Shown here one piece after another: positions 8,013 to 42,128 of a stretch of DNA of 52,354 nt. Source of the stretch: an uncultured Candidatus Saccharibacteria bacterium (GTDB lineage Bacteria > Patescibacteriota > Minisyncoccia > Phycocordibacterales > UBA9973); assembly GCA_964618925.1 (NCBI GenBank), contig CAZUCZ010000001.1, positions 1,464 through 53,817 of the forward strand. The letters run 5' to 3'. Positions within the stretch are counted from its first letter, which is position 1. Each line of letters opens with the position of its first letter. The position numbers and the translations under genes are program-made. The notes under the pieces are model-generated. The model saw nothing but the letters and a program-made list of their open reading frames with translations, did no database searches and was not told the origin of the DNA.

Positions 8013-9242
8013 ATGAAGATATTATCGATCGAAACATCCTGCGACGACACAGGTATCACCATAATGGAAGTCACCGGCGGCATTACGAACGCTTCTTTTA
8101 AGGTGCTCGCAGATAGCGCAAATTCTCAAATCGCGACCCACATCCCCTACGGCGGCGTCTACCCTGCCCTTGCTAAACGCGAACATCAGAAAAATCTACC
8201 TATCTTACTCGAGCAAGTATTGCTCGAAGCAAAACTAGATAAACCTGCCCGCAATGCTTCCGGCATAGCTGGTGCAGGCGGGAAGAAACAACCAGTCGAT
8301 ATCATCGCGGTCACCTATGGTCCCGGGCTCGAAATGTGCCTCTGGGAAGGCATCACCTTTGCAAAAGATCTCGCTAAGAAATGGAATGTGCCGCTCATCC
8401 CGACAGACCACATGGCAGGACACATCTGCTCGGTATTTGGTAAAAAACACAATGCGAACGAGCCGCAGAAAAAAACCAAAGCAAAGTTCCAAATCCCAAA
8501 AATCAAAACACCACTGCTATCTCTACTTGTTTCCGGCGGACACACCCAGCTCATCGTCAGCAAGAAATGGATGGAATACGAGATCATCGGGGAGACACTC
8601 GACGATGCCGTCGGTGAAGCGTATGACAAAGTCGCCCGTATGCTTGGGCTACCCTACCCTGGTGGACCAGAGATTTCAAGACTTGCAAACGAAGCCAGAA
8701 TCAAAAAACTCGGGCACGAACCCGAGAGAAGCCTTGGGAGGAGCGACGGCGACGGACAGAGAAAATTTTCAGCAGAAAATTTTCGTGCTGAATCCGGGTT
8801 CGTGCCCGAGTTTTCCCTCCCCCGCCCTATGTTGAAATCTAAAGATTTTAATTTTTCATATTCTGGATTAAAAACATCAGTATTATATTTGATAAGGGAC
8901 ATGGGTGGACTCGAAAAAATAAACGAAGAGACAAAACGCGCCATCGCACTCGAATTCGAAAACGCGGCAATAGAATGCCTCCTTTATAAAACAGCGAAAG
9001 CAATAGAGAAATACAATATCAAGACGGTGATCGTCGGTGGTGGAGTGTCTGGCAATTCATTCCTGCAACAAGAAATGAAAAAGCTCGTCGGCAAAAATAT
9101 AAAACTTTACATGCCACAGAAAAACCTCTCTGGAGATAATTCCCTCATGATCGGTATCGCCGGCTATCTCGAATACATAAAAAATAAAAAGAAAGTTCCA
9201 AAACCTGAGACCATCAAAGCCGACGGCAATGTAAAGCTCTAA
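8013..9242 (+). CDS. tsaD: tRNA N6-adenosine threonylcarbamoyltransferase TsaD, with lineage-specific insertions
   Basis: MKILSIETSCDDTG, VTYGPGL, LLVSGGHTQL, FSYSGLKT and VGGGVSGN are Kae1/TsaD landmarks. At 409 aa it is about 60-70 aa longer than usual because of at least three inserted segments. Confidence 0.9.
   Translation: MKILSIETSCDDTGITIMEVTGGITNASFKVLADSANSQIATHIPYGGVYPALAKREHQKNLPILLEQVLLEAKLDKPARNASGIAGAGGKKQPVDIIAVTYGPGLEMCLWEGITFAKDLAKKWNVPLIPTDHMAGHICSVFGKKHNANEPQKKTKAKFQIPKIKTPLLSLLVSGGHTQLIVSKKWMEYEIIGETLDDAVGEAYDKVARMLGLPYPGGPEISRLANEARIKKLGHEPERSLGRSDGDGQRKFSAENFRAESGFVPEFSLPRPMLKSKDFNFSYSGLKTSVLYLIRDMGGLEKINEETKRAIALEFENAAIECLLYKTAKAIEKYNIKTVIVGGGVSGNSFLQQEMKKLVGKNIKLYMPQKNLSGDNSLMIGIAGYLEYIKNKKKVPKPETIKADGNVKL
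8709..8810. repeat. 102-bp palindromic element with perfect 16-bp terminal inverted repeats, in frame inside tsaD (codons 233-266)
   Basis: CTCGGGCACGAACCCG (8709-8724) is the exact reverse complement of CGGGTTCGTGCCCGAG (8795-8810). There is an internal 9-bp hairpin AAAATTTTC-AGCA-GAAAATTTT. Length is 102 = 34 codons, starting on a codon boundary. Confidence 0.85.
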
Positions 9243-9283: not shown

Positions 9284-11443
9284 ATGGACGAGAAGCTCTT
9301 AAAGCCGTATAACCCAAAAGAAACCGAAGAAAGAATATATAAACTATGGGAGGATAGTGGTTTTTTTAATCCCGATGTCTGTGTAAAGGAAGGTATCACG
9401 AAGGCAGATGCCCCGTATTTTTCTATCGTTCTCCCCCCTCCAAATGCGACTGGTGTGCTCCATCTCGGACATGCACTCGAAGACTCGATGCAAGACACCA
9501 TGATCCGTTATAATCGTATGAAAGGTAAACGCACACTCTGGGTACCCGGCACCGACCACGCAGCTATAGCGACTGATGCAAAGGTGGGAAAAATTCTAGA
9601 AAAAGAAGGTCTGAAAAAACGAGACATCGGACGTGAAAAGTTCCTCGAACGTGTAGATGAGTTCGTAGACAATAGTAGAAAAACAATAGTAAAACAATTA
9701 CGCAAGATCGGTGCTTCGCTCGACTGGTCTCGTGAAGCTTTTACGTATGACGAAGCACGTAACTTTGCAGTACGTACTACATTTAAAAAAATGTATGACG
9801 ATGGACTCATCTACCGAGGTAATAAGATAGTAAACTGGGATCCAAAAGGTCAGACGGTAATCTCCGATGATGAAATAGTCTACGAAGAAAGAAAAGCAAA
9901 ACTCTATACCTTTAAATACAGCAAGGACTTCCCTATCTCTATTTCAACAACTCGCCCGGAAACCAAAGTCGGTGATACTGCGGTGGCGGTGCACCCAGAC
10001 GATGCACGATACAAAGAATTTGTCGGTAAAGAATATGATTTAGAATTTTGTGGAGTGCCGATACATATTAAAATAATAGCTGACAAAGAAGTCGACCCGG
10101 CATTTGGTACTGGTGCACTCGGAGTTACTCCTGCGCATGCGCTCATCGACTGGGAAATGGCAGACAGGCACGACCTCCCTCGCCCACAGGTTATCAACGA
10201 ATACGCAAAGATGATGGTAGGTGGAGAAAACTTACTCGGTAAAAAAACTACTGAAGCAAAAGAAGTAGTAGTAGAATGGCTCCGCTCCGAAGGGCTACTC
10301 GAAAAAGAAGAAGAGATAAATCAAAATATCAGTACTGCTGAGCGCACCGGAGGCATCATCGAACCTCTCCCAAAACTCCAATGGTTCGTCGATGTAAATA
10401 AAAAAATTCCTGAGCGTGGTAACAAATCTTTAAAAGAACTCATGCTCGAACCGGTAAGAAATAAAAACATAGAGATACTACCAGATCATTTTGAAAAAGT
10501 TTATTTTAATTGGATTGAAAATCTCCGTGACTGGTGTATATCAAGACAAATCTGGTACGGACACAGGGTGCCGGTATGGTATAAAAACGATGAAATATAT
10601 TGTGGTGTAGAAGCACCCGGTGGCGAAGGTTGGGTACAAGACGAAGACACTCTCGACACCTGGTTCTCTTCTGGGTTGTGGACTTTTTCTACTCTCGGCT
10701 GGCCAGATATGGATGCATCTGATCTAAAGAATTTCCACCCGACTAACGTCATCAACCCTGGATATGAAATACTCTTCTTCTGGGTCGCACGTATGATCCT
10801 CATGTCTCAATACTTGATCGGTGACATACCTTTCAAGACCGTATACCTGCACGGGATGCTCCGTGATGCAAAGGGACGTAAATTTAGTAAATCTCTCGAC
10901 AATGGCGTAGACCCTATCGAAATCATAAATGAATTCGGCGCAGATGCCCTCCGCATGTCTATGATCGTGGGCATAGGTCCCGGCGCTGATGGAAAGTTCG
11001 ATATACAAAAAGTAAAAGCATATGGAAAATTTAGTAATAAAATCTGGAATGCGACACGATTCGTACTCGACAATACCAAAGATTTTGATTTTGAAAAAGC
11101 TATCGAATATGACGCTGATGACAAAGCTTCAGACGAAGAATTACAAAATCTCGTCACCGAAATCACCAGAGAACTAGATGAATATAAATTCTATATTGTT
11201 GCCGAGAAGCTATATCATTATTTCTGGCACACATTTGCTGATATAATAATAGAACGGTCAAAGAAAAAAATATTAGAAGGAGCCGGTGCCGATTCTGCAA
11301 AGAAATTACTTTATACACACCTCGTCACACTACTCACTGTGCTGCATCCGTTTATGCCGTTCGTAACCGAAGAAATCTGGAGCATGCTCCCTCTAAAAAA
11401 CAAACAGTTATTACTTATTGAAAAATGGCCAACCCAACGATAA
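9284..11443 (+). CDS. valS: Valyl-tRNA synthetase (short form, no C-terminal coiled-coil)
   Basis: PPPNATGVLHLGHA (HIGH), TTRPETKVGDTAVAVHP (editing domain), KFSKSLDN (KMSKS). 719 aa. Confidence 0.9.
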   Translation: MDEKLLKPYNPKETEERIYKLWEDSGFFNPDVCVKEGITKADAPYFSIVLPPPNATGVLHLGHALEDSMQDTMIRYNRMKGKRTLWVPGTDHAAIATDAKVGKILEKEGLKKRDIGREKFLERVDEFVDNSRKTIVKQLRKIGASLDWSREAFTYDEARNFAVRTTFKKMYDDGLIYRGNKIVNWDPKGQTVISDDEIVYEERKAKLYTFKYSKDFPISISTTRPETKVGDTAVAVHPDDARYKEFVGKEYDLEFCGVPIHIKIIADKEVDPAFGTGALGVTPAHALIDWEMADRHDLPRPQVINEYAKMMVGGENLLGKKTTEAKEVVVEWLRSEGLLEKEEEINQNISTAERTGGIIEPLPKLQWFVDVNKKIPERGNKSLKELMLEPVRNKNIEILPDHFEKVYFNWIENLRDWCISRQIWYGHRVPVWYKNDEIYCGVEAPGGEGWVQDEDTLDTWFSSGLWTFSTLGWPDMDASDLKNFHPTNVINPGYEILFFWVARMILMSQYLIGDIPFKTVYLHGMLRDAKGRKFSKSLDNGVDPIEIINEFGADALRMSMIVGIGPGADGKFDIQKVKAYGKFSNKIWNATRFVLDNTKDFDFEKAIEYDADDKASDEELQNLVTEITRELDEYKFYIVAEKLYHYFWHTFADIIIERSKKKILEGAGADSAKKLLYTHLVTLLTVLHPFMPFVTEEIWSMLPLKNKQLLLIEKWPTQR

Positions 11444-14425: not shown

Positions 14426-14443
14426 GCCGGCAGAGTAAAATAT

Positions 14444-14527
14444 AATCTTTTGAAGGGGTTTGGCGAGTGACGGCGAGCCAACTTCAGGATTTTTTAACCT
14501 TCAAAAAATCCGTACCGAAAAAAGATT
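14444..14527. repeat. Intergenic palindromic element, copy A
   Basis: Outer arms AATCTTTT/AAAAGATT. Contains GAGTGACGGCGAG and a 9-bp hairpin GGATTTTTT-AACCTTC-AAAAAATCC (14487-14511). About three-quarters identical by eye to 34514-34600. Confidence 0.8.
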
Positions 14528-14548
14528 GATATTTTATTTGGATTTTTA

Positions 14549-16351
14549 CTAGTTATCTCCACTTTTCATCATCTTCAAGAAAACATCTTGAGATATGTTT
14601 ACCTTTCCGCGCTCTTTCATTTTCTTCTTTCCTTTCTTTTGCTTTTCTCGTAATTTCATTTTACGAGTTATGTCTCCTCCGTACATGTGCTGAGTCACGT
14701 CTTTTTTCATACCTGATTTAGATCGTGAAGATATTATTCTACCCAACGCCTTGCCTTGTATTTTCATAGCAAACATTTGGCGTGGTAAAAGTTTATCGAG
14801 TTTTTCTACCGACTTTTCGGCTTCTTCTTCCACTCTCCTCTTGGATATAACTTTAGAAAAAGCAGGTACGACTTCGTCTGCGACTATCATATCGAGTCTA
14901 GTTACGTTGGCTTCTCGCATTTCTCCCACATCATAAGATATAGATGCATACCCAGAAGAAGTACTTTTTAGTTCATCAAAGAAGTTACGCATGAGCTCAC
15001 GAAGGGGCATCTTCACTGACACAGAAGACCTATTGTCTCCAAAATTCTCGGTCTCGCCTATTTCAGCTTCATGATCAAACAACAACTGCATTATCGGACC
15101 CAGGTACACAGAAGGTGAAATTATTTTCACACTGACCCAAGGCTCAAATACTTTATCGATATTACCATCATCAGGGAAAAAGTACGGTGAATATATTTTT
15201 TCTTTCTTGCCATTACGAAGTAATACTTCATACGTAATAGATGGAGTTGTTATAACGAGGTCTAGATTAAACTCTCTCTTTAATCTTTCGGTTATGATCT
15301 CCAGGTGGAGCATCCCCAGGAACCCACAGCGGAATCCTTTACCTAAAGACCCTGAGGCTTCTTCTTCATAAGAAAACGCTGAGTCAGAAAGCTTTAGCTT
15401 TCCAAGTGCAAGTTTGAGTTCGGCAAAATCATCTGCATCTTCAGGGAATACTGACGCCCACACCACAGGGAGCGGCTGCATATATCCTGGGAAGGCAGGT
15501 AGCGGATTCTTCGCCATGGTTATGGTATCTCCAACAGAAGCAATACCTGGTTTTTTAATACCTGTAACTATATACCCGGTCTCACCAGCAGATAAAAACT
15601 CTCTTGGAGTTTCCTCTGGAGAAAAAGTACCAACCTCAAGAGCTGTAAATTTTTCTTTGGATATGGCAAAGAGTAAGTTGTCGCCTTTACTAATTTTCCC
15701 ATCGAGTACACGTATGAAAACTATCACTCCTCTGTGATTTGAATATTTAAAATCAAAAACCAGAGCGCGAGTAGATCCCTCTTTTTTTTCGGTTTCTTTT
15801 GGCTCAGGTATTCTTTTAATGATTTCTTTTAATAGATTTTCTACACCTTCGCCAGTACGCCCTGACACGAGCAAGATATCATCAGGATCACAGTCGAGAA
15901 GCTCTACCACCTCCTCTTTGATATCATCCACTCGAGCAAGCGGAGAGTCTATCTTTGATAATACAGGGATTATCTTAAGCCCACCTTCACGAGCCATAGA
16001 GAGAGTGGTCAGCGTCTGAGCTTGCACCCCCTGAGTAGCATCTACGAGCAATATAGAGCCCTCTACGGCTTTGAGGGCACGCGATACCTCATATGAGAAG
16101 TCTATGTGCCCTGGTGTGTCGATCAGGTTGAGGACATAGTTTTCAGCACCTAATTTGTATTCCATGCGCACCGGCTGCATCTTGATCGTGATACCACGCT
16201 CGCGTTCGAGCTCCATGGTATCGAGCATCTGATCACGCATCTTACGCTCTGGTATGGTATGAGTAATTTCAAGCATCCTATCAGCCAAGGTACTTTTACC
16301 ATGGTCTATGTGGGCAATAATTGAAAAATTCCTAATATTTCTTAGGTCCAT
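14549..16351 (-). CDS. lepA: Elongation factor 4 (LepA)
   Basis: NFSIIAHIDHGKSTLADR, DTPGH and the LepA-specific C-terminal domain. 600 aa. Confidence 0.95.
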   Translation of the reverse strand: MDLRNIRNFSIIAHIDHGKSTLADRMLEITHTIPERKMRDQMLDTMELERERGITIKMQPVRMEYKLGAENYVLNLIDTPGHIDFSYEVSRALKAVEGSILLVDATQGVQAQTLTTLSMAREGGLKIIPVLSKIDSPLARVDDIKEEVVELLDCDPDDILLVSGRTGEGVENLLKEIIKRIPEPKETEKKEGSTRALVFDFKYSNHRGVIVFIRVLDGKISKGDNLLFAISKEKFTALEVGTFSPEETPREFLSAGETGYIVTGIKKPGIASVGDTITMAKNPLPAFPGYMQPLPVVWASVFPEDADDFAELKLALGKLKLSDSAFSYEEEASGSLGKGFRCGFLGMLHLEIITERLKREFNLDLVITTPSITYEVLLRNGKKEKIYSPYFFPDDGNIDKVFEPWVSVKIISPSVYLGPIMQLLFDHEAEIGETENFGDNRSSVSVKMPLRELMRNFFDELKSTSSGYASISYDVGEMREANVTRLDMIVADEVVPAFSKVISKRRVEEEAEKSVEKLDKLLPRQMFAMKIQGKALGRIISSRSKSGMKKDVTQHMYGGDITRKMKLREKQKKGKKKMKERGKVNISQDVFLKMMKSGDN

Positions 16352-22023: not shown

Positions 22024-25000
22024 CTAGACGACGATGTTAATAATCTTCCTGGGGATAAAAATCACTTTTTTGATATCCGCGACGAGCCATTTTTTGACAT
22101 CTGGGATCTGGGTTGCAATAGCTAGTGCTTCGGATTCGAGGATTTCTGGGCTTGCCTTAAATTCTGCACGAACTTTACCGTTTATTTGAATCACGATAGT
22201 CACTTCTAGTTCTTTCATTTTACTTTTATTTGCTTTCGGCCATGACTCCAATACGAGGAGACTTTTATGTCCTAAATTATTCCAGATTTCTTCAGTTATG
22301 TGTGGTGCGAATGGAGATAGAATTTTCAAAAATAGTTCAAAATCTTTTTTATCTACACATGCTGCTTTCTCCATTTCATTTACTAAGATCATCATTGATG
22401 AAATACAAGTATTGAAAGCAAAATTTTCTATATCTGTGGTAACTTTCTGGATTGTTTTATGTAGAACTGTTTGCAGCACTGCATCTGAGGTTGTCTTTTT
22501 ATCTGCAGGAATTTTTTGTGAAAGTTTCCAGACACGTTCGAGAAAACGACGTGATCCAACAATGTTGTCAGTACTCCATGGAAGTGATGCATCGAATGGA
22601 CCCATGAACATTTCATATACCCGTAGTGTATCTGCACCATAATTTTTGACAATTTCATCTGGGTTAATGACATTACCCCAACGCTTACTCATCTTTCTAT
22701 TGTCCGTACCCAGAATCATACCTTGATTACGAAGTGTCTGAAATGGTTCTTCGGTCACCACGAGTCCGTAATCTTTTAAGAATTTGTGCCAGAAACGCGA
22801 GTAAAGTAAATGTCCTGTGGCGTGTTCCTGTCCACCAACATACATATCTACATTTTTCCAATACTTTATCGCTGACTTATCAGCAAAAGATTTCTTATTC
22901 TTCGGATCCATGTAACGCAAGAAATACCAAGAAGACCCTGCCCAACCTGGCATCGTATTCGTCTCGTAGCCATGCTTCATCCAATCTTTCACACTTGCGA
23001 GCGGAGACTCTCCGGTACCGAGTGGTTTATATGACTTTACAGGTGGAAGTTTGAGAGGAAGTTTTTTCTCAGGCAATTCTTTTATCATCCCCTCTTTGTC
23101 GTACATGAGTGGTATAGGTTCTCCCCAATACCGCTGCCGTGCAAAGATAGCATCACGCATTTTGTAATTTACCTTGCGGGTAGCAAAACCTTTTTTTACG
23201 AGCCAGTCTGTGATATCTGCTCGTGCTTCATGAACTTCTCTTCCTTTAAATTCTGGTGGTTCTGTTAAAATTCCATCTAATATAGGTTGCTCTTTACCTA
23301 GAAGAACGTTCCATCTATATCGCAAACTTTCTGTGGTTAAAAAAGATTCTACTTCTTCTTTTTTAAGCCAAATGAATTCATGGTTTTGTTTCTCTGTCTC
23401 TGAGACTTCTTTTTGGTCTCCATTTTCTAATTCAAAATAAAATGTATCGAAATGTCCAAAACGGTTTTGGTCTTTTGGTTTATGAAAAAACAAACTATGA
23501 TATCTACCGAGCTTCTTTACTAGTTTTAAATTAAAATACCCAGTTTCCTCTTCAATCTCAGCTCGAGCTGCTTCTTCAGCTGTCTGTCCTTTTTCTATAC
23601 CACCACTAATAAAAGTTCCCCAGTTTACTTTCTTCCATTTTAATCCTAAGTACTTGTCTTCTGACCAATGTTTAACGATCGCAAGGATCGCATCTCTCTC
23701 AACTGTTGGTTTATCCTTTCGCACTGCATCCATCCCATCATTGTCCACAAAAAACGGTTCAATAACTTCTTTTAATTTAATATTAAACTTTTTTGCAAAG
23801 GCAAAATCGCGAACGTCATGTGCAGAACATTTTACAATACCTGTACCATAATCTTTTAATGCAAAACTCGCTACCCATATTGGCAAGTCGCCATTACCGA
23901 GCGGATCGATGGCATATCTGCCAGTAAAAATGCCATCGATGTCTTTATATTCATCCCCAAGTTTATTTCTCTTATCTATTATTTCTTTAGCTTTCTTTAG
24001 TACAGCATCTTTTTCTGGTCTACCTTCGAGTAATTTTAAAAGAAGCGGATGATCTGGAGCAATAACAAAAAATGTATCAGCATAGCAGGCTTCGTAGTGG
24101 GCACTAAATGTTTTTATGATAATATCACTATCTTTAACTTTCGCAGAAAAGATTAAACCTTCACTCTTCCCTATCCAGTTCTTCTGTATTTCTTTTATAT
24201 GAAGTGACCAATTCAAACTATCGAGTCCAGAGAGGAGTCTGTCTGCATATGCGGTGATGCGCATGAACCATTGACGCATGTTTTTCTTCTCGACTGGATA
24301 TCCGCCACGCTCAGACACAGGACCATGTGGACCATCGACGACTTCATCATTTGCAAGAACTGTACCGAGTCCTGGACACCAATTCACCTCGGCATAGCCT
24401 TCATACGCGAGACGATATTTCATCAAGGTATCTTGCTTTTCTTTTGGGGTTTTGATCTTCCATTCTTTTGCGGTGAAAATTCCTACATTATTGTCAGAGA
24501 CTGCATCTATATTTTCATTACCAGACTTTTCAAAAATCTTGGTGAGTTTTTCTATCGGCTGTGCTTTATTTGTCTTTTTGTCATACCAAGAATTGTAAAT
24601 CTTTAAGAATATCCATTGCGTCCATTTATAAAATTCTGGATCCGTCGTGTTTACTCTACGATCCCAATCATACGAGAGTCCGATAATAGAGAGCTGCTTT
24701 TCAAATGTTTTGACATTTTTCTCTACTGCTTGGCGAGGGTTAATATTGTGATCTATCGCATATTGCTCTGCAGGTAAACCAAATGCATCATAACCCATCG
24801 GATGAAGAACATTGTATCCTTCCATCCGTTTCATTCGTGCAAATACATCGGACCCAATGTATCCTTTTGGATGCCCCACGTGCAACCCAACCCCTGAAGG
24901 ATATGGGAACATATCGAGCACATAGTATTTTTTCTGCTTTGATTTATTTGAGGTTTTGTAAGCCTTCTTTTTCTCCCAAATACTCTGCCATGATTTTTCA

Positions 25001-25026
25001 ATTTTCTTATGATCGTATTCTTTCAT
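22024..25026 (-). CDS. leuS: Leucyl-tRNA synthetase carrying an inserted Nudix-like domain
   Basis: PYPSGVGLHVGHP (HIGH), a CP1 block GTGIVKCSAHDVRDFAFA, RKVNYKMRDAIFARQRYWGEPIP and KMSKRWGN (KMSKS). At 1000 aa it is about 140-190 aa longer than typical bacterial LeuRS. Confidence 0.9.
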   Translation of the reverse strand: MKEYDHKKIEKSWQSIWEKKKAYKTSNKSKQKKYYVLDMFPYPSGVGLHVGHPKGYIGSDVFARMKRMEGYNVLHPMGYDAFGLPAEQYAIDHNINPRQAVEKNVKTFEKQLSIIGLSYDWDRRVNTTDPEFYKWTQWIFLKIYNSWYDKKTNKAQPIEKLTKIFEKSGNENIDAVSDNNVGIFTAKEWKIKTPKEKQDTLMKYRLAYEGYAEVNWCPGLGTVLANDEVVDGPHGPVSERGGYPVEKKNMRQWFMRITAYADRLLSGLDSLNWSLHIKEIQKNWIGKSEGLIFSAKVKDSDIIIKTFSAHYEACYADTFFVIAPDHPLLLKLLEGRPEKDAVLKKAKEIIDKRNKLGDEYKDIDGIFTGRYAIDPLGNGDLPIWVASFALKDYGTGIVKCSAHDVRDFAFAKKFNIKLKEVIEPFFVDNDGMDAVRKDKPTVERDAILAIVKHWSEDKYLGLKWKKVNWGTFISGGIEKGQTAEEAARAEIEEETGYFNLKLVKKLGRYHSLFFHKPKDQNRFGHFDTFYFELENGDQKEVSETEKQNHEFIWLKKEEVESFLTTESLRYRWNVLLGKEQPILDGILTEPPEFKGREVHEARADITDWLVKKGFATRKVNYKMRDAIFARQRYWGEPIPLMYDKEGMIKELPEKKLPLKLPPVKSYKPLGTGESPLASVKDWMKHGYETNTMPGWAGSSWYFLRYMDPKNKKSFADKSAIKYWKNVDMYVGGQEHATGHLLYSRFWHKFLKDYGLVVTEEPFQTLRNQGMILGTDNRKMSKRWGNVINPDEIVKNYGADTLRVYEMFMGPFDASLPWSTDNIVGSRRFLERVWKLSQKIPADKKTTSDAVLQTVLHKTIQKVTTDIENFAFNTCISSMMILVNEMEKAACVDKKDFELFLKILSPFAPHITEEIWNNLGHKSLLVLESWPKANKSKMKELEVTIVIQINGKVRAEFKASPEILESEALAIATQIPDVKKWLVADIKKVIFIPRKIINIVV

Positions 25027-34434: not shown

Positions 34435-34513
34435 AATTTATTGTGTACTTAATTTTAATACATATAGTATAGCAAAAATACAGAATGCAACAAAGAAGAA
34501 AGTAACTTTGAAT

Positions 34514-34600
34514 GTAACTTTTTAAGGGGTTTCGAACTCGACGGAGCGAGAATTTCAGGATTTTTTAAGCTTCAAAAAATCCGTACCGGCAAAAAGTTAC
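34514..34600. repeat. Intergenic palindromic element, copy B (gap/dnaE divergent spacer)
   Basis: Perfect 10-bp terminal inverted repeat GTAACTTTTT (34514-34523) / AAAAAGTTAC (34591-34600). Internal hairpin GGATTTTTT-AAGCTTC-AAAAAATCC (34558-34582). Homologous to 14444-14527. Confidence 0.8.
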
Positions 34601-34639
34601 TACTTCAGAAATTACTTCATAGTATGTTATTATAAGAAA

Positions 34640-40671: not shown

Positions 40672-41256
40672 ATGAAGATCATCCTTCAACAACAAGAACG
40701 CGTACTACGCAAGGTAGCTAAGGAAGTTCCCCTACCTGATATCACAAAACCAAAGATCAAAAAAATCTTAAAGGAGATGTCCGTATCGCTCGCAAGCCAA
40801 CACGATGGTGTAGCTATCGCTGCACCACAGATCGGATATAGCTTCCGAATCTTTCTGGTCTCAGGTAAAATTTTTGGAGCAGGATTTTCTAGGCGGGGTG
40901 TCTCGCAGGCTGACGAGCCGAGAGGCAGCGCTGAATCAGCAGATTCAGACAGCGACCCCGCAAAGAAAGATCCTGGGACCAAGAAGGATCTTGTGTTTAT
41001 TAACCCAAAGATATCAAAACTCTCACGTGAACGAGCCTGGGTACCCGAAGGCTGCCTTTCAGTACGATGGCTCTACGGCAAGACCTTTAGATCCAAAAAA
41101 GCTACCGTGACCGCATACGACGAAGAAGGTAAAAAGTTCACCCGTGGTGCTTCGGGACTCCTCGCACAGATATTCCAACACGAGACAGACCACCTAAACG
41201 GCATTCTCTTTATCGATCACGCCAAAGATATAAAAGAAGAATTACCAGCGAAATAA
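40672..41256 (+). CDS. def: Peptide deformylase with an inserted acidic low-complexity segment
   Basis: GVAIAAPQIG (motif 1), EGCLS (motif 2) and QHETDH (motif 3). About 30 extra residues (GAGFSRRGVSQADEPRGSAESADSDSDPAKKDPG) lie between motif 1 and the INP strand. Confidence 0.9.
   Translation: MKIILQQQERVLRKVAKEVPLPDITKPKIKKILKEMSVSLASQHDGVAIAAPQIGYSFRIFLVSGKIFGAGFSRRGVSQADEPRGSAESADSDSDPAKKDPGTKKDLVFINPKISKLSRERAWVPEGCLSVRWLYGKTFRSKKATVTAYDEEGKKFTRGASGLLAQIFQHETDHLNGILFIDHAKDIKEELPAK
40881..40974. repeat. GC-rich imperfect palindromic element, in frame inside def
   Basis: The outer arms AGGAT.TTCT..GCGGGG....TCGC (40881-40906) pair with GCGA CCCCGC..AGAA..ATCCT (40952-40974). Perfect inner hairpin CTGAATC-AGCA-GATTCAG (40931-40948). 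Confidence 0.65.
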
Positions 41257-41270
41257 TTTTTACATCGTAG

Positions 41271-42128
41271 ATGCAAGATCATAAAAAACTAAATTTCGTA
41301 TTTTTTGGTACTTCAGAGGAAGCAACATATGCGCTTGATGCTTTATATGAAAAAGGATACATACCTTCCTTGATCGTTACTGCACCTGATAGACCGGCAG
41401 GAAGGAACCATGAGCTAAAGGCTCCACTCGCAAAGCTGTGGGCACAAGAACACACTGTTCCCTTTCTTCAACCAGAAAAAATTACTGCTGAAGTTATCGA
41501 AGAAATTGCGAAACAACATGCAGAGATATTTATTGTAGTTGGCTACGGAAGGATCTTGCCTCAAGCGTTAATAGATATTCCAAAATATAACACACTGAAC
41601 ATTCATACTTCTTTATTGCCACTCCACCGTGGACCTACACCCATAGAAGGACCAATCCTTGCTGGAGACAGAGAGACTGGTATCACGATCATGGTTATAG
41701 ACAAAGATGTTGACCATGGTCCAATTATCAAGCAAGAAGTCTACCCTCTGATCGGCACAGAAACAACACCAGAGCTGACCAAAATACTTTTTACCCGTGG
41801 TGGTGAACTACTCGCAGAATTACTCCCAGATTGGATTATGGGGAAAATTACCCCAAGAGAACAAGATCACTCGAAAGCTACCTTCACAAAAAAACTTAAA
41901 AAAGAAGATGGCTTGGTAGATATAGAAAAAAATTCTGATAAGGAGTTATGGGCAAAATTCCGAGCCTATACCCCCTGGCCACGGATTTTCTTTTTCCAAA
42001 ACGGCAAGAGAATCATCATCACTGACGCTGCTCTTGAGAATGGCAAATTTATAATAAAGAAAGTAATCCCTGAAGGTAAAAAGGAAATGTCATGGGAAAT
42101 TTTTCAACAATCTAATACTTCCCTGTAA
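41271..42128 (+). CDS. fmt: Methionyl-tRNA formyltransferase
   Basis: FFGTSEEATYALDAL, NIHTSLLPLHRGPTPIE (SLLP/HRG motif) and a C-terminal beta-barrel domain. Confidence 0.9.
   Translation: MQDHKKLNFVFFGTSEEATYALDALYEKGYIPSLIVTAPDRPAGRNHELKAPLAKLWAQEHTVPFLQPEKITAEVIEEIAKQHAEIFIVVGYGRILPQALIDIPKYNTLNIHTSLLPLHRGPTPIEGPILAGDRETGITIMVIDKDVDHGPIIKQEVYPLIGTETTPELTKILFTRGGELLAELLPDWIMGKITPREQDHSKATFTKKLKKEDGLVDIEKNSDKELWAKFRAYTPWPRIFFFQNGKRIIITDAALENGKFIIKKVIPEGKKEMSWEIFQQSNTSL

Follow-up and report, generated by a model that had tools for sequence, protein, structure and literature searches.

A palindromic element inserted in frame in tsaD of an uncultured patescibacterium is probably a copy of an old, clade-wide family of selfish DNA

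The Rickettsia palindromic elements (RPEs, RPE-1 to RPE-10) have been described as in-frame fusions in many Rickettsia genes (Ogata et al. 2000, 2002, summarised in PMC10969869). The repetitive extragenic palindromes (REPs) are located within 20 bp behind open reading frames (ORFs), and gene-internal REPs encode 20–30 aa and occasionally occupy the same site in related species; the REP unit is a simple 20–40-nt hairpin with an unpaired GTAG/CGTC tag at one end and a CCA tail (PMC3733652). The CGTC-tagged REP superfamily includes RPE-4 and RPE-6 and has no known dedicated transposase (Di Nocera et al. 2013, PMC3733652). Here we report the analysis of a palindromic segment in the tsaD gene of an uncultured bacterium deposited as Candidatus Saccharibacteria, on a stretch of 52,354 nt (contig CAZUCZ010000001.1 of assembly GCA_964618925.1, positions 1,464 to 53,817), hereafter called the window. 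An earlier note on this DNA had taken the segment for a miniature palindromic mobile element analogous to RPEs. Covariance-model searches, a census of orthologous genes and structure comparisons suggest that it is a copy of an old, clade-wide family of 85–117-nt palindromic selfish DNA, RPE/REP-like, in Paceibacteria/Nomurabacteria-like Patescibacteria, a reading to which we assign a probability of about 0.65. The palindromic family itself is previously undescribed, though of a known kind; the full-text literature on palindromic elements of Patescibacteria or the Candidate Phyla Radiation (CPR) yielded no prior description.

The gene and the parts of its palindrome, in which P1, P2 and P3 denote the arms, a short stem and a longer stem, are as follows (positions in the window):

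8013..9242, plus strand: tsaD, encoding the tRNA t6A37 threonylcarbamoyltransferase, an unbroken ORF of 409 aa (NCBIfam TIGR03723).
8705..8814, plus strand: the complete palindromic element (subfamily S3), 110 nt, defined by inverted repeat, fold and covariance-model match.
8705..8724, plus strand: left arm, the 5' strand of P1, 100% complementary to 8795–8814.
8795..8814, plus strand: right arm, the 3' strand of P1, the final bases of which are shared with the native codons for Phe-Ser in the conserved motif FSLPRPM.
8740..8753, plus strand: remnant of P2, GGAGC-GACG-GCGAC, with the near-invariant GACG loop and a partly decayed stem.
8761..8784, plus strand: P3 hairpin, GAAAATTTTC-AGCA-GAAAATTTTC, with the near-invariant AGCA loop.

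The 16-nt exact inverted repeats reported in the earlier note, CTCGGGCACGAACCCG (8709–8724) and CGGGTTCGTGCCCGAG (8795–8810), are reverse complements, and the inner 9-bp AGCA hairpin described there is located at 8761–8784. The repeat is thus real; the limits of the element are not 8709–8810 as proposed but 8705–8814, for the arms are in fact 20 nt long (AAAACTCGGGCACGAACCCG and CGGGTTCGTGCCCGAGTTTT, perfectly paired) and enclose a core of 70 nt. This is the top-ranked inverted repeat of the window, where the chance expectation for perfect 20-nt pairs no more than 200 nt apart in 52 kb is about 1e-5. The 102 nt originally delimited do comprise 34 codons without a stop, the first base of codon 233 being 8709, and their peptide agrees with the earlier reading; the in-frame translation of the element is KLGHEPERSLGRSDGDGQRKFSAENFRAESGFVPEF. 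The RNA fold of 8700–8820 reaches −56.8 kcal/mol (z −7.2, with none of 200 shuffles as good) and the DNA fold of the same region −35.6 kcal/mol (z −7.6, no shuffle equal). The covariance model described below matches tsaD at 8717–8802 with 56.4 bits (E 6e-16). In the relative L001 the P2 stem is intact (GGAGC-GACG-GCTCC). The segment had also been called much more GC-rich than its surroundings; a surplus is indeed present (0.57 in 8709–8810, against 0.46 in the remainder of tsaD and 0.40 in the window), but the wording was somewhat generous, since the core has just 0.49 and the surplus resides in the arms.

The TsaD protein of the window scores 307 bits against TIGR03723 (cut-off 296), and its nearest homologues are from Patescibacteria, with Patescibacteria, Nomurabacteria or Paceibacterota as source names. 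In TsaD of non-CPR bacteria and of many Patescibacteria the PGGP and PRPM motifs are spaced by 24 residues. In the solved TsaD structures the ...LA.EG segment runs directly into Y/F.LP.P; residues 229–267 of the window protein align to chain residues 190–193 of 8iey, and the same gap is found in 6nak, with 2–3 residues there. The insert has no counterpart in the solved structures, which have no residues at this position. The AlphaFold model of the window protein (mean predicted local distance difference test score, pLDDT, of 85) falls below 50 only at residues 84–89 (at the second insertion site described below), at 237–264 (the element) and at the C-terminus, and the insert is predicted to be a disordered loop that connects the ...ISRLA helix with FSLPRPM. 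The reading frames in actual use are the most hydrophilic and the least charged of those available.

Loci for the comparison of this loop were retrieved from metagenomes through the N-terminal motif LEMCLWE, i.e. independently of the insert; 80 were obtained, and 76 with both flanking anchors were analysed, a count that includes the window and three further loci. A scan of genome contigs with a full-length TsaD alignment gave, among the matches listed, mostly distant or non-CPR TsaD genes, which served as empty-site controls and as negative controls for the covariance model. In all 76 loci the length of the insert is a multiple of three and the insert is free of stops, which argues strongly for its translation and against an intron or bypass. 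Of the 120 TsaD homologues closest to the window protein (identity of at least 61%), most have an insert at this very position, with several unrelated peptide types. At the DNA level these types resolve into one nucleotide element read in other frames or from the opposite strand, and all the long inserts of the metagenome loci fold as long hairpins. An ancient protein loop lacking palindromic DNA, which the earlier note had named as the finding that would speak against an element, is hence not what the orthologues exhibit: most members of the clade do have an insert, but every long one is palindromic DNA. The empty sites that the note proposed to look for are present outside the clade, in the solved structures and also inside the clade.

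The turnover at this site is fast. The 58 distinct tsaD alleles comprise 41 with a family member, 12 with unrelated long palindromes and 5 with short inserts; the family core is present in either orientation, and tandem double elements occupy the loop in L148, L117, L140 and L147. The type of insert scarcely tracks the relatedness of the TsaD proteins (concordance between nearest neighbours 0.28, versus 0.17 with shuffled labels), and genes that are 94–99% identical outside the insert differ in their element or have none, which the DNA sequences bear out. For instance, TsaD of the window and that of P0003 are 94% identical outside the insert, and P0003 has an S1 element in reversed orientation (L167, 87.6 bits, minus strand), while of P0019 and P0028, 99% identical outside the insert, one has a reversed S2 element and the other no palindrome. 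The tsaD loop is thus a clade-wide hot spot of fast turnover, and the insert is not peculiar to the lineage of the window. As a separate observation, at least five other, mutually unrelated palindromic families occupy the same TsaD loop in relatives (L129/L096/L107, L094/L098/L101, L100/L126/L157, L125, L099 and L151), and a hairpin without the core was seen at the tsaD site of L103, L145 and L151.

The relationship of the tsaD insert to sequences elsewhere was assessed with a covariance model, R1, built from the tsaD inserts of the relatives and run on the window and on related contigs, 0.88 Mb, several of them from groundwater sets named 'Hain'. It gave 77 matches, which include the 4 in the window and about 20 away from the tsaD loop. 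In a control set of 1.17 Mb, off-site matches to R1 were confined to two loci labelled Patescibacteria, with none in DNA from outside the Patescibacteria. The four copies of the window, two coding and two intergenic, all lie on the plus strand; besides the element in tsaD, the features concerned are:

40672..41256, plus strand: def, encoding peptide deformylase, with the AAPQIG, EGCLS and HETDH motifs; its homologues carry PF01327.
40879..40976, plus strand: S1 copy within def, in frame, encoding GFSRRGVSQADEPRGSAESADSDSDPAKKD; limits of the palindrome, with the model match at 40884–40971 (79.9 bits, E 9e-24).
14436..14536, plus strand: intergenic copy A (S4), 45.3 bits, E about 1e-12; limits of the palindrome.
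34513..34601, plus strand: intergenic copy B (S4), 49.4 bits, E about 1e-12, in the divergent gapA-dnaE spacer.

The copy in def, which the earlier note had not listed, is the best-scoring family member of the window (z of its DNA fold −5.9), and its peptide RRGVSQADEPRGSAESADSDSDP is of the type that is commonest in the TsaD inserts. Among 120 def homologues, most have S1 in the forward orientation, two have it reversed and a minority has an unrelated loop free of hairpins; the copy is on the minus strand in L169 (78.5 bits) and on the plus strand in L168 and L171. The def site is steadier than the tsaD loop. A third enzyme, methionyl-tRNA formyltransferase, encoded by fmt (10587–11483 in L168), possesses an in-frame copy at 10800–10925 of that locus, which was retrieved around def; its arms are perfect over 25 bp and its peptide is LGDIFAISSQADEPRKAILHQQDMRVSKNIPE. 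The corresponding site is empty in the window (41271–42128), in L170 and in L171, and in L169 a short insert of another kind is present there.

The lepA gene (14549..16351, minus strand) has the intergenic copy A immediately behind its stop codon. Among 13 related loci the lepA spacer is filled in three, each time with other arms and once with the element flipped, and empty in ten; the three copies in this spacer abut the lepA stop codon or lie within about 12 nt of it. The gapA-dnaE spacers of L168, L170 and L171 lack copy B. More generally, 11 of 12 intergenic copies are found 11–37 nt behind a stop codon, in either orientation, and both filled and empty sites were found for each location. 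The earlier note had based its idea of a dispersed family on an 11/13 nucleotide match between the tsaD element and A and on the shared architecture of B. The match is real, the covariance model identifies both A and B as homologous to the tsaD element, and the family is broader than was proposed, as one model unites tsaD, A, B, def and dozens of copies in related genomes. The cumulative GC skew declines steadily over the whole window, in which all four copies are plus-oriented; the shared orientation might reflect a replication-strand bias, four copies being too few to tell.

No described RNA family accounts for the copies: with Rfam 15 the window gives just four tRNAs at the gathering score and no family for any copy, and in permissive scans (E up to 10) of A, of the copies in tsaD and def, and of L138, which has three S4 copies, nothing but generic long hairpins came up, with scores far below threshold. 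Viral contigs contained no exact DNA match to the patterns of the S1 and S4 cores. A tRNA-like element was also considered and rejected, ARAGORN finding only the four true tRNAs in the window.

A second in-frame site exists in TsaD itself, between LPILLE..L..A and IDLIAVTYGPG, where S3-type copies are found in L098 (9887–9994) and L113 (9884–9991). The window has extra residues at this site (aa 77–96, 8241–8290, pLDDT below 50); their DNA forms only a weak hairpin (z −1.9) and may be what is left of a decayed copy. A third segment of the window protein, aa 146–162 (8448–8498), HNANEPQKKTKAKFQIP, corresponds to a gap in the solved TsaD structures.

The alignment of 40 oriented cores reveals a common anatomy. 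The core, about 65 nt, is a three-way junction in which a short GACG-capped stem and a 7–10-bp AGCA-capped stem are closed by the arms, and the conservation of the loops is at least 90%. Across the family the stems behave as follows:

P1, the arms: 70% paired.
P2, the short stem with the GACG cap: 91% paired, with double changes at 4 of 4 pairs.
P3, the 7–10-bp stem with the AGCA cap: 98% paired, with double changes at 7 of 7 pairs.

The overall covariation score is 0.53, compared with 0.20 for shuffled alignments and at most 0.25 when the partners are slid, and the composition of P3 ranges from GC-rich in some copies to AT-rich in others. Four subfamilies can be distinguished, S1, S2 and S3 being mostly coding and S4, to which A and B belong, intergenic. 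In the coding subfamilies stop-free frames are about twice as frequent as in composition-matched shuffles; the intergenic subfamily exhibits no such excess, and S4 has stop codons in almost every frame. Between genomes, the unpaired junction and loop bases GGGGTTT, GACG, ACTTCAG and CCGTACC are kept, while the P2 stem covaries. Weak matches to the model (24–33 bits) were found at L119 9661–9745, L139 9636–9724 (equal to L144 7728–7816), L148 2592–2684 and L123 10473–10558; they exhibit an AGCA-capped AT-rich hairpin with a differing 5' half, three in the spacer upstream of tsaD and that of L123 elsewhere, and probably represent a further, more distant subfamily.

All 16 copies examined centre a palindrome of 85–117 nt. 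Family members have roughly the innermost 12 nt of the arms in common (..AATCTTTGCGGGG), and each locus has its own outer 10–20 nt. Both in fmt of L168, ELF(L/V)VV, and in tsaD, FSLPRP, the outer part of the right arm coincides with conserved codons of the native gene, which suggests that the palindrome may have grown outward through inverted copying of one flank. Insertion into the tip of a pre-existing hairpin of the host was considered and rejected, as no hairpin is present in any of the ten lepA spacers that lack the element, nor at the unoccupied sites in def and fmt; the arms therefore arrive with the element or arise afterwards.

Several lines of evidence bear on whether the unit under selection is DNA, RNA or peptide. 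Both orientations of the core occur at a single site in tsaD, in def and in the lepA spacer, and identical S3 nucleotides encode ..GRSDGDGQRKFSAENFRAES in the window and, in a different frame, ..GSATARTRANFQQKIMGAES in L104. Nucleotide identity of the cores within subfamilies amounts to 0.77–0.85, compared with 0.52–0.56 at the third positions of the flanking conserved tsaD codons. Amino acids change in pairs, e.g. SA-PR-A-RG-DSD, SA-VR-A-RT-DSD and SA-ES-A-DS-DSD (APRARG, AVRART, AESADS), because covariation of the stem keeps the pairing. Finally, the inserts contain 109 G.U pairs when folded as mRNA and 245 when folded as the antisense strand (2.2-fold), and for the cores folding slightly favours the plus strand of the element irrespective of its orientation in the gene. 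Taken together, the orientation, the different reading frames, the conservation of the core, the paired changes and the wobble asymmetry argue against selection on the peptide or on the tsaD mRNA and for a family whose unit behaves as DNA.

The resemblance to RPEs postulated in the earlier note is borne out in size, dispersal, in-frame copies in housekeeping genes and compatibility of the site with the fold. In both cases a small, reduced genome harbours scattered hairpin repeats of about 100–150 bp that have no transposase of their own. Housekeeping genes contain many of the copies, in frame and stop-free, and intergenic DNA contains others; the insert is compatible with the host fold, and many insertions are old and common to related species. 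The likeness is nevertheless one of behaviour ('works like', not 'is a member of'), since the host belongs to another phylum, and membership in the RPE family by descent is unlikely. The family described here differs from RPEs also in its conserved three-way-junction core with near-invariant GACG and AGCA loops and mostly copy-specific arms, and in the filling of one protein loop throughout a clade by several subfamilies, in both orientations, several frames and tandem arrays, with fast turnover. With REPs it shares the preferred location behind stop codons in either orientation, the frequent formation of larger hairpins and the occurrence of some copies inside genes, and its near-invariant GACG reads CGTC on the other strand, as in the CGTC-tagged REPs; here, however, the tetranucleotide is the loop of the P2 hairpin inside a three-way junction of about 65 nt and not a terminal tag. 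No RAYT gene was seen among the 41 of the 50 window ORFs that were scanned or otherwise identified. Like MITEs, the miniature inverted-repeat transposable elements such as Correia/NEMIS, ERIC, BOX and RUP, the copies are small, non-autonomous, bounded by inverted repeats and dispersed, with occasional in-frame ORF fusions (PMC10969869); unlike them, they exhibit no target-site duplication and no conserved outer ends, and no partner insertion sequence was found in the same 41 ORFs. As the copies have neither conserved termini nor target-site duplications and do not have the build of a REP unit, we file the family under neither class.

We suggest how such a family could be maintained. The unit would act as DNA, and not within the mRNA, and would spread via a hairpin-dependent insertion process, with selection sparing only those copies that came to lie in permissive loops with hydrophilic, stop-free frames. 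Intrastrand hairpin-templated repair would keep the complementarity of arms and stems and possibly extend it into flanking codons; recombination between the arms would flip the core, and homologous recombination between lineages would shuffle the alleles of the tsaD loop. The conservation of unpaired bases implies recognition by some protein, and the conserved loops suggest a protein partner that would fulfil this role. A more specific and tentative form of the idea, which we consider possible but rather doubtful, is that the three-way-junction core is the recognition module of a new hairpin-dependent mobile DNA, the loops of which are recognised by a nuclease, a recombinase or a host factor, with settling in frame in essential genes, flipping, fold-back extension of the arms and exchange between lineages.

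Certain observations weigh against the selfish-DNA reading. At the palindrome limits of the 16 copies, as in the comparisons of filled and empty sites, there is no target-site duplication; the outer ends of the arms vary from copy to copy and are not conserved; and no transposase or recombinase domain was found in the 41 ORFs mentioned above. Classical cut-and-paste behaviour of a MITE is thus not supported, and of the miniature palindromic mobile element proposed earlier the in-frame palindrome, the likeness to RPEs and the family stand, while no transposase was found in these ORFs and no target-site duplication or conserved termini in the copies. Copies within a genome are no more similar to each other (identity 0.71) than copies from different genomes (0.74), so there is no sign of recent within-genome bursts, a candidate that we had considered and rejected on these grounds. 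The one filled and empty tsaD pair compared at the DNA level, P0019/P0028, looks like a recombination tract and not like a clean insertion: the DNA identity is 96–100% along the gene, drops to 60–75% in a stretch of about 100 nt on the left flank of the element and is about 95% immediately to the right. Translation of the insert is deduced from the conservation of the reading frame. With the 30-aa def peptide as query, no match at E<=0.001 was obtained among 1.8 billion representatives, a search of low power that is not evidence of absence, and a 49-aa concatenated peptide query gave two word-sharing candidates, neither of which scored. Lastly, the conservation of unpaired bases in the loops and the junction speaks against pure junk and would also fit a function for the host.

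Such a function is the first alternative to be weighed. The family could be a nucleic-acid motif beneficial to the host (a REP-like binding site or an RNA or ssDNA structure, for example one that stabilises transcript ends, acts as a terminator or is bound by a nucleoid or replication protein) with its home behind stop codons and strays in genes. The location of 11 of 12 S4 copies is what one would expect of such a motif, as are the unpaired junction and loop bases that persist between genomes while P2 covaries, the equal identity within and between genomes, and a core much better conserved than synonymous sites; similar roles have been credited to REPs (PMC3733652). On the other hand, the lepA spacer is filled in only 3 of 13 loci and the gapA-dnaE spacer in the window only, so that the sites manage without the element; the orientation relative to the upstream gene flips, copy B lies between divergent gene starts, no Rfam family matches up to E 10, and a role at transcript ends leaves the recurrent in-frame copies in tsaD, def and fmt unexplained. 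We therefore regard a host-serving motif as unlikely.

The hairpin could also be a cis-acting structure of the tsaD mRNA, such as a target of RNase III, a stem with a regulatory role or one at which translation pauses, an interpretation to which the very stable RNA fold (−56.8 kcal/mol, z −7.2), the covariation of the stems and the retention of the insert at the same place in most orthologues lend some appeal. Yet with both orientations at one site the loops would read CGUC and UGCU in some of the mRNAs, close relatives have unrelated palindromes or empty sites, the excess of G.U pairs is on the antisense and not on the mRNA strand, and the intergenic members of the family lie antisense to neighbouring genes, all of which renders this interpretation quite improbable. 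Even harder to maintain is the view that the 34–37 residues are a lineage-specific functional loop of TsaD selected as protein, with the palindromy incidental. The insert peptide is in frame throughout and some peptide types are widely shared (e.g. GVSQADGPRGSA..DSDP), but other frames and the opposite strand yield unrelated peptides in the orthologues, third codon positions are conserved as much as the others, the amino-acid changes are paired according to the stem, Def and Fmt, which are unrelated enzymes, contain the same peptide, disorder is predicted for the segment, and it is missing from relatives that are 99% identical elsewhere; we deem this view very improbable.

Intervening sequences are well known from the rRNA genes of CPR bacteria, and the fungal mitochondrial GC clusters, double-hairpin elements and byp elements are short GC-rich hairpin mobile DNA that is likewise found within protein genes of reduced genomes; the ribosome skips byp elements, for which no reading frame has to be kept, in contrast to the 76 of 76 inserts described here, which are in frame and stop-free and so apparently translated. 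That the segment never reaches the protein, as an intron, an excised RNA hairpin or a translational bypass, is hardly credible, for although the long stem juxtaposes both junctions, neither a length divisible by three nor freedom from stops would be needed in an excised insert, no Rfam intron family matches, and there are no intein blocks, the peptide lacking an N-terminal Cys/Ser and a C-terminal His-Asn plus Cys/Ser/Thr junctions.

If the tsaD element is a copy of a selfish palindromic family, as we favour, these Patescibacteria would be a second lineage with protein-coding palindromes, which are best documented as the RPEs of Rickettsia, besides scattered gene-internal REPs elsewhere, with a clade-wide distribution in very small genomes and with essential, translation-related genes (tsaD, def, fmt) as hosts. 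Some inserts in CPR proteins that are so far unexplained would acquire a concrete origin in the family, and predicted CPR proteins may contain translated selfish DNA, which matters for annotation and for structure modelling. Should the reading as hairpin-dependent mobile DNA also be true, it would be a general source of lineage-specific inserts in CPR proteins, beyond a passive analogue of RPEs. The family would also be an unusually clear natural example of nucleic-acid pairing that steers protein sequence, and the tsaD loop could serve as a fast-turning marker of recombination between uncultured lineages.

Another unusual insertion was observed elsewhere in the window, in the leucyl-tRNA synthetase of 1000 aa (22027–25026, minus strand), where a NUDIX domain (PF00293, aa 466–559, E 8.5e-12) follows the editing domain.

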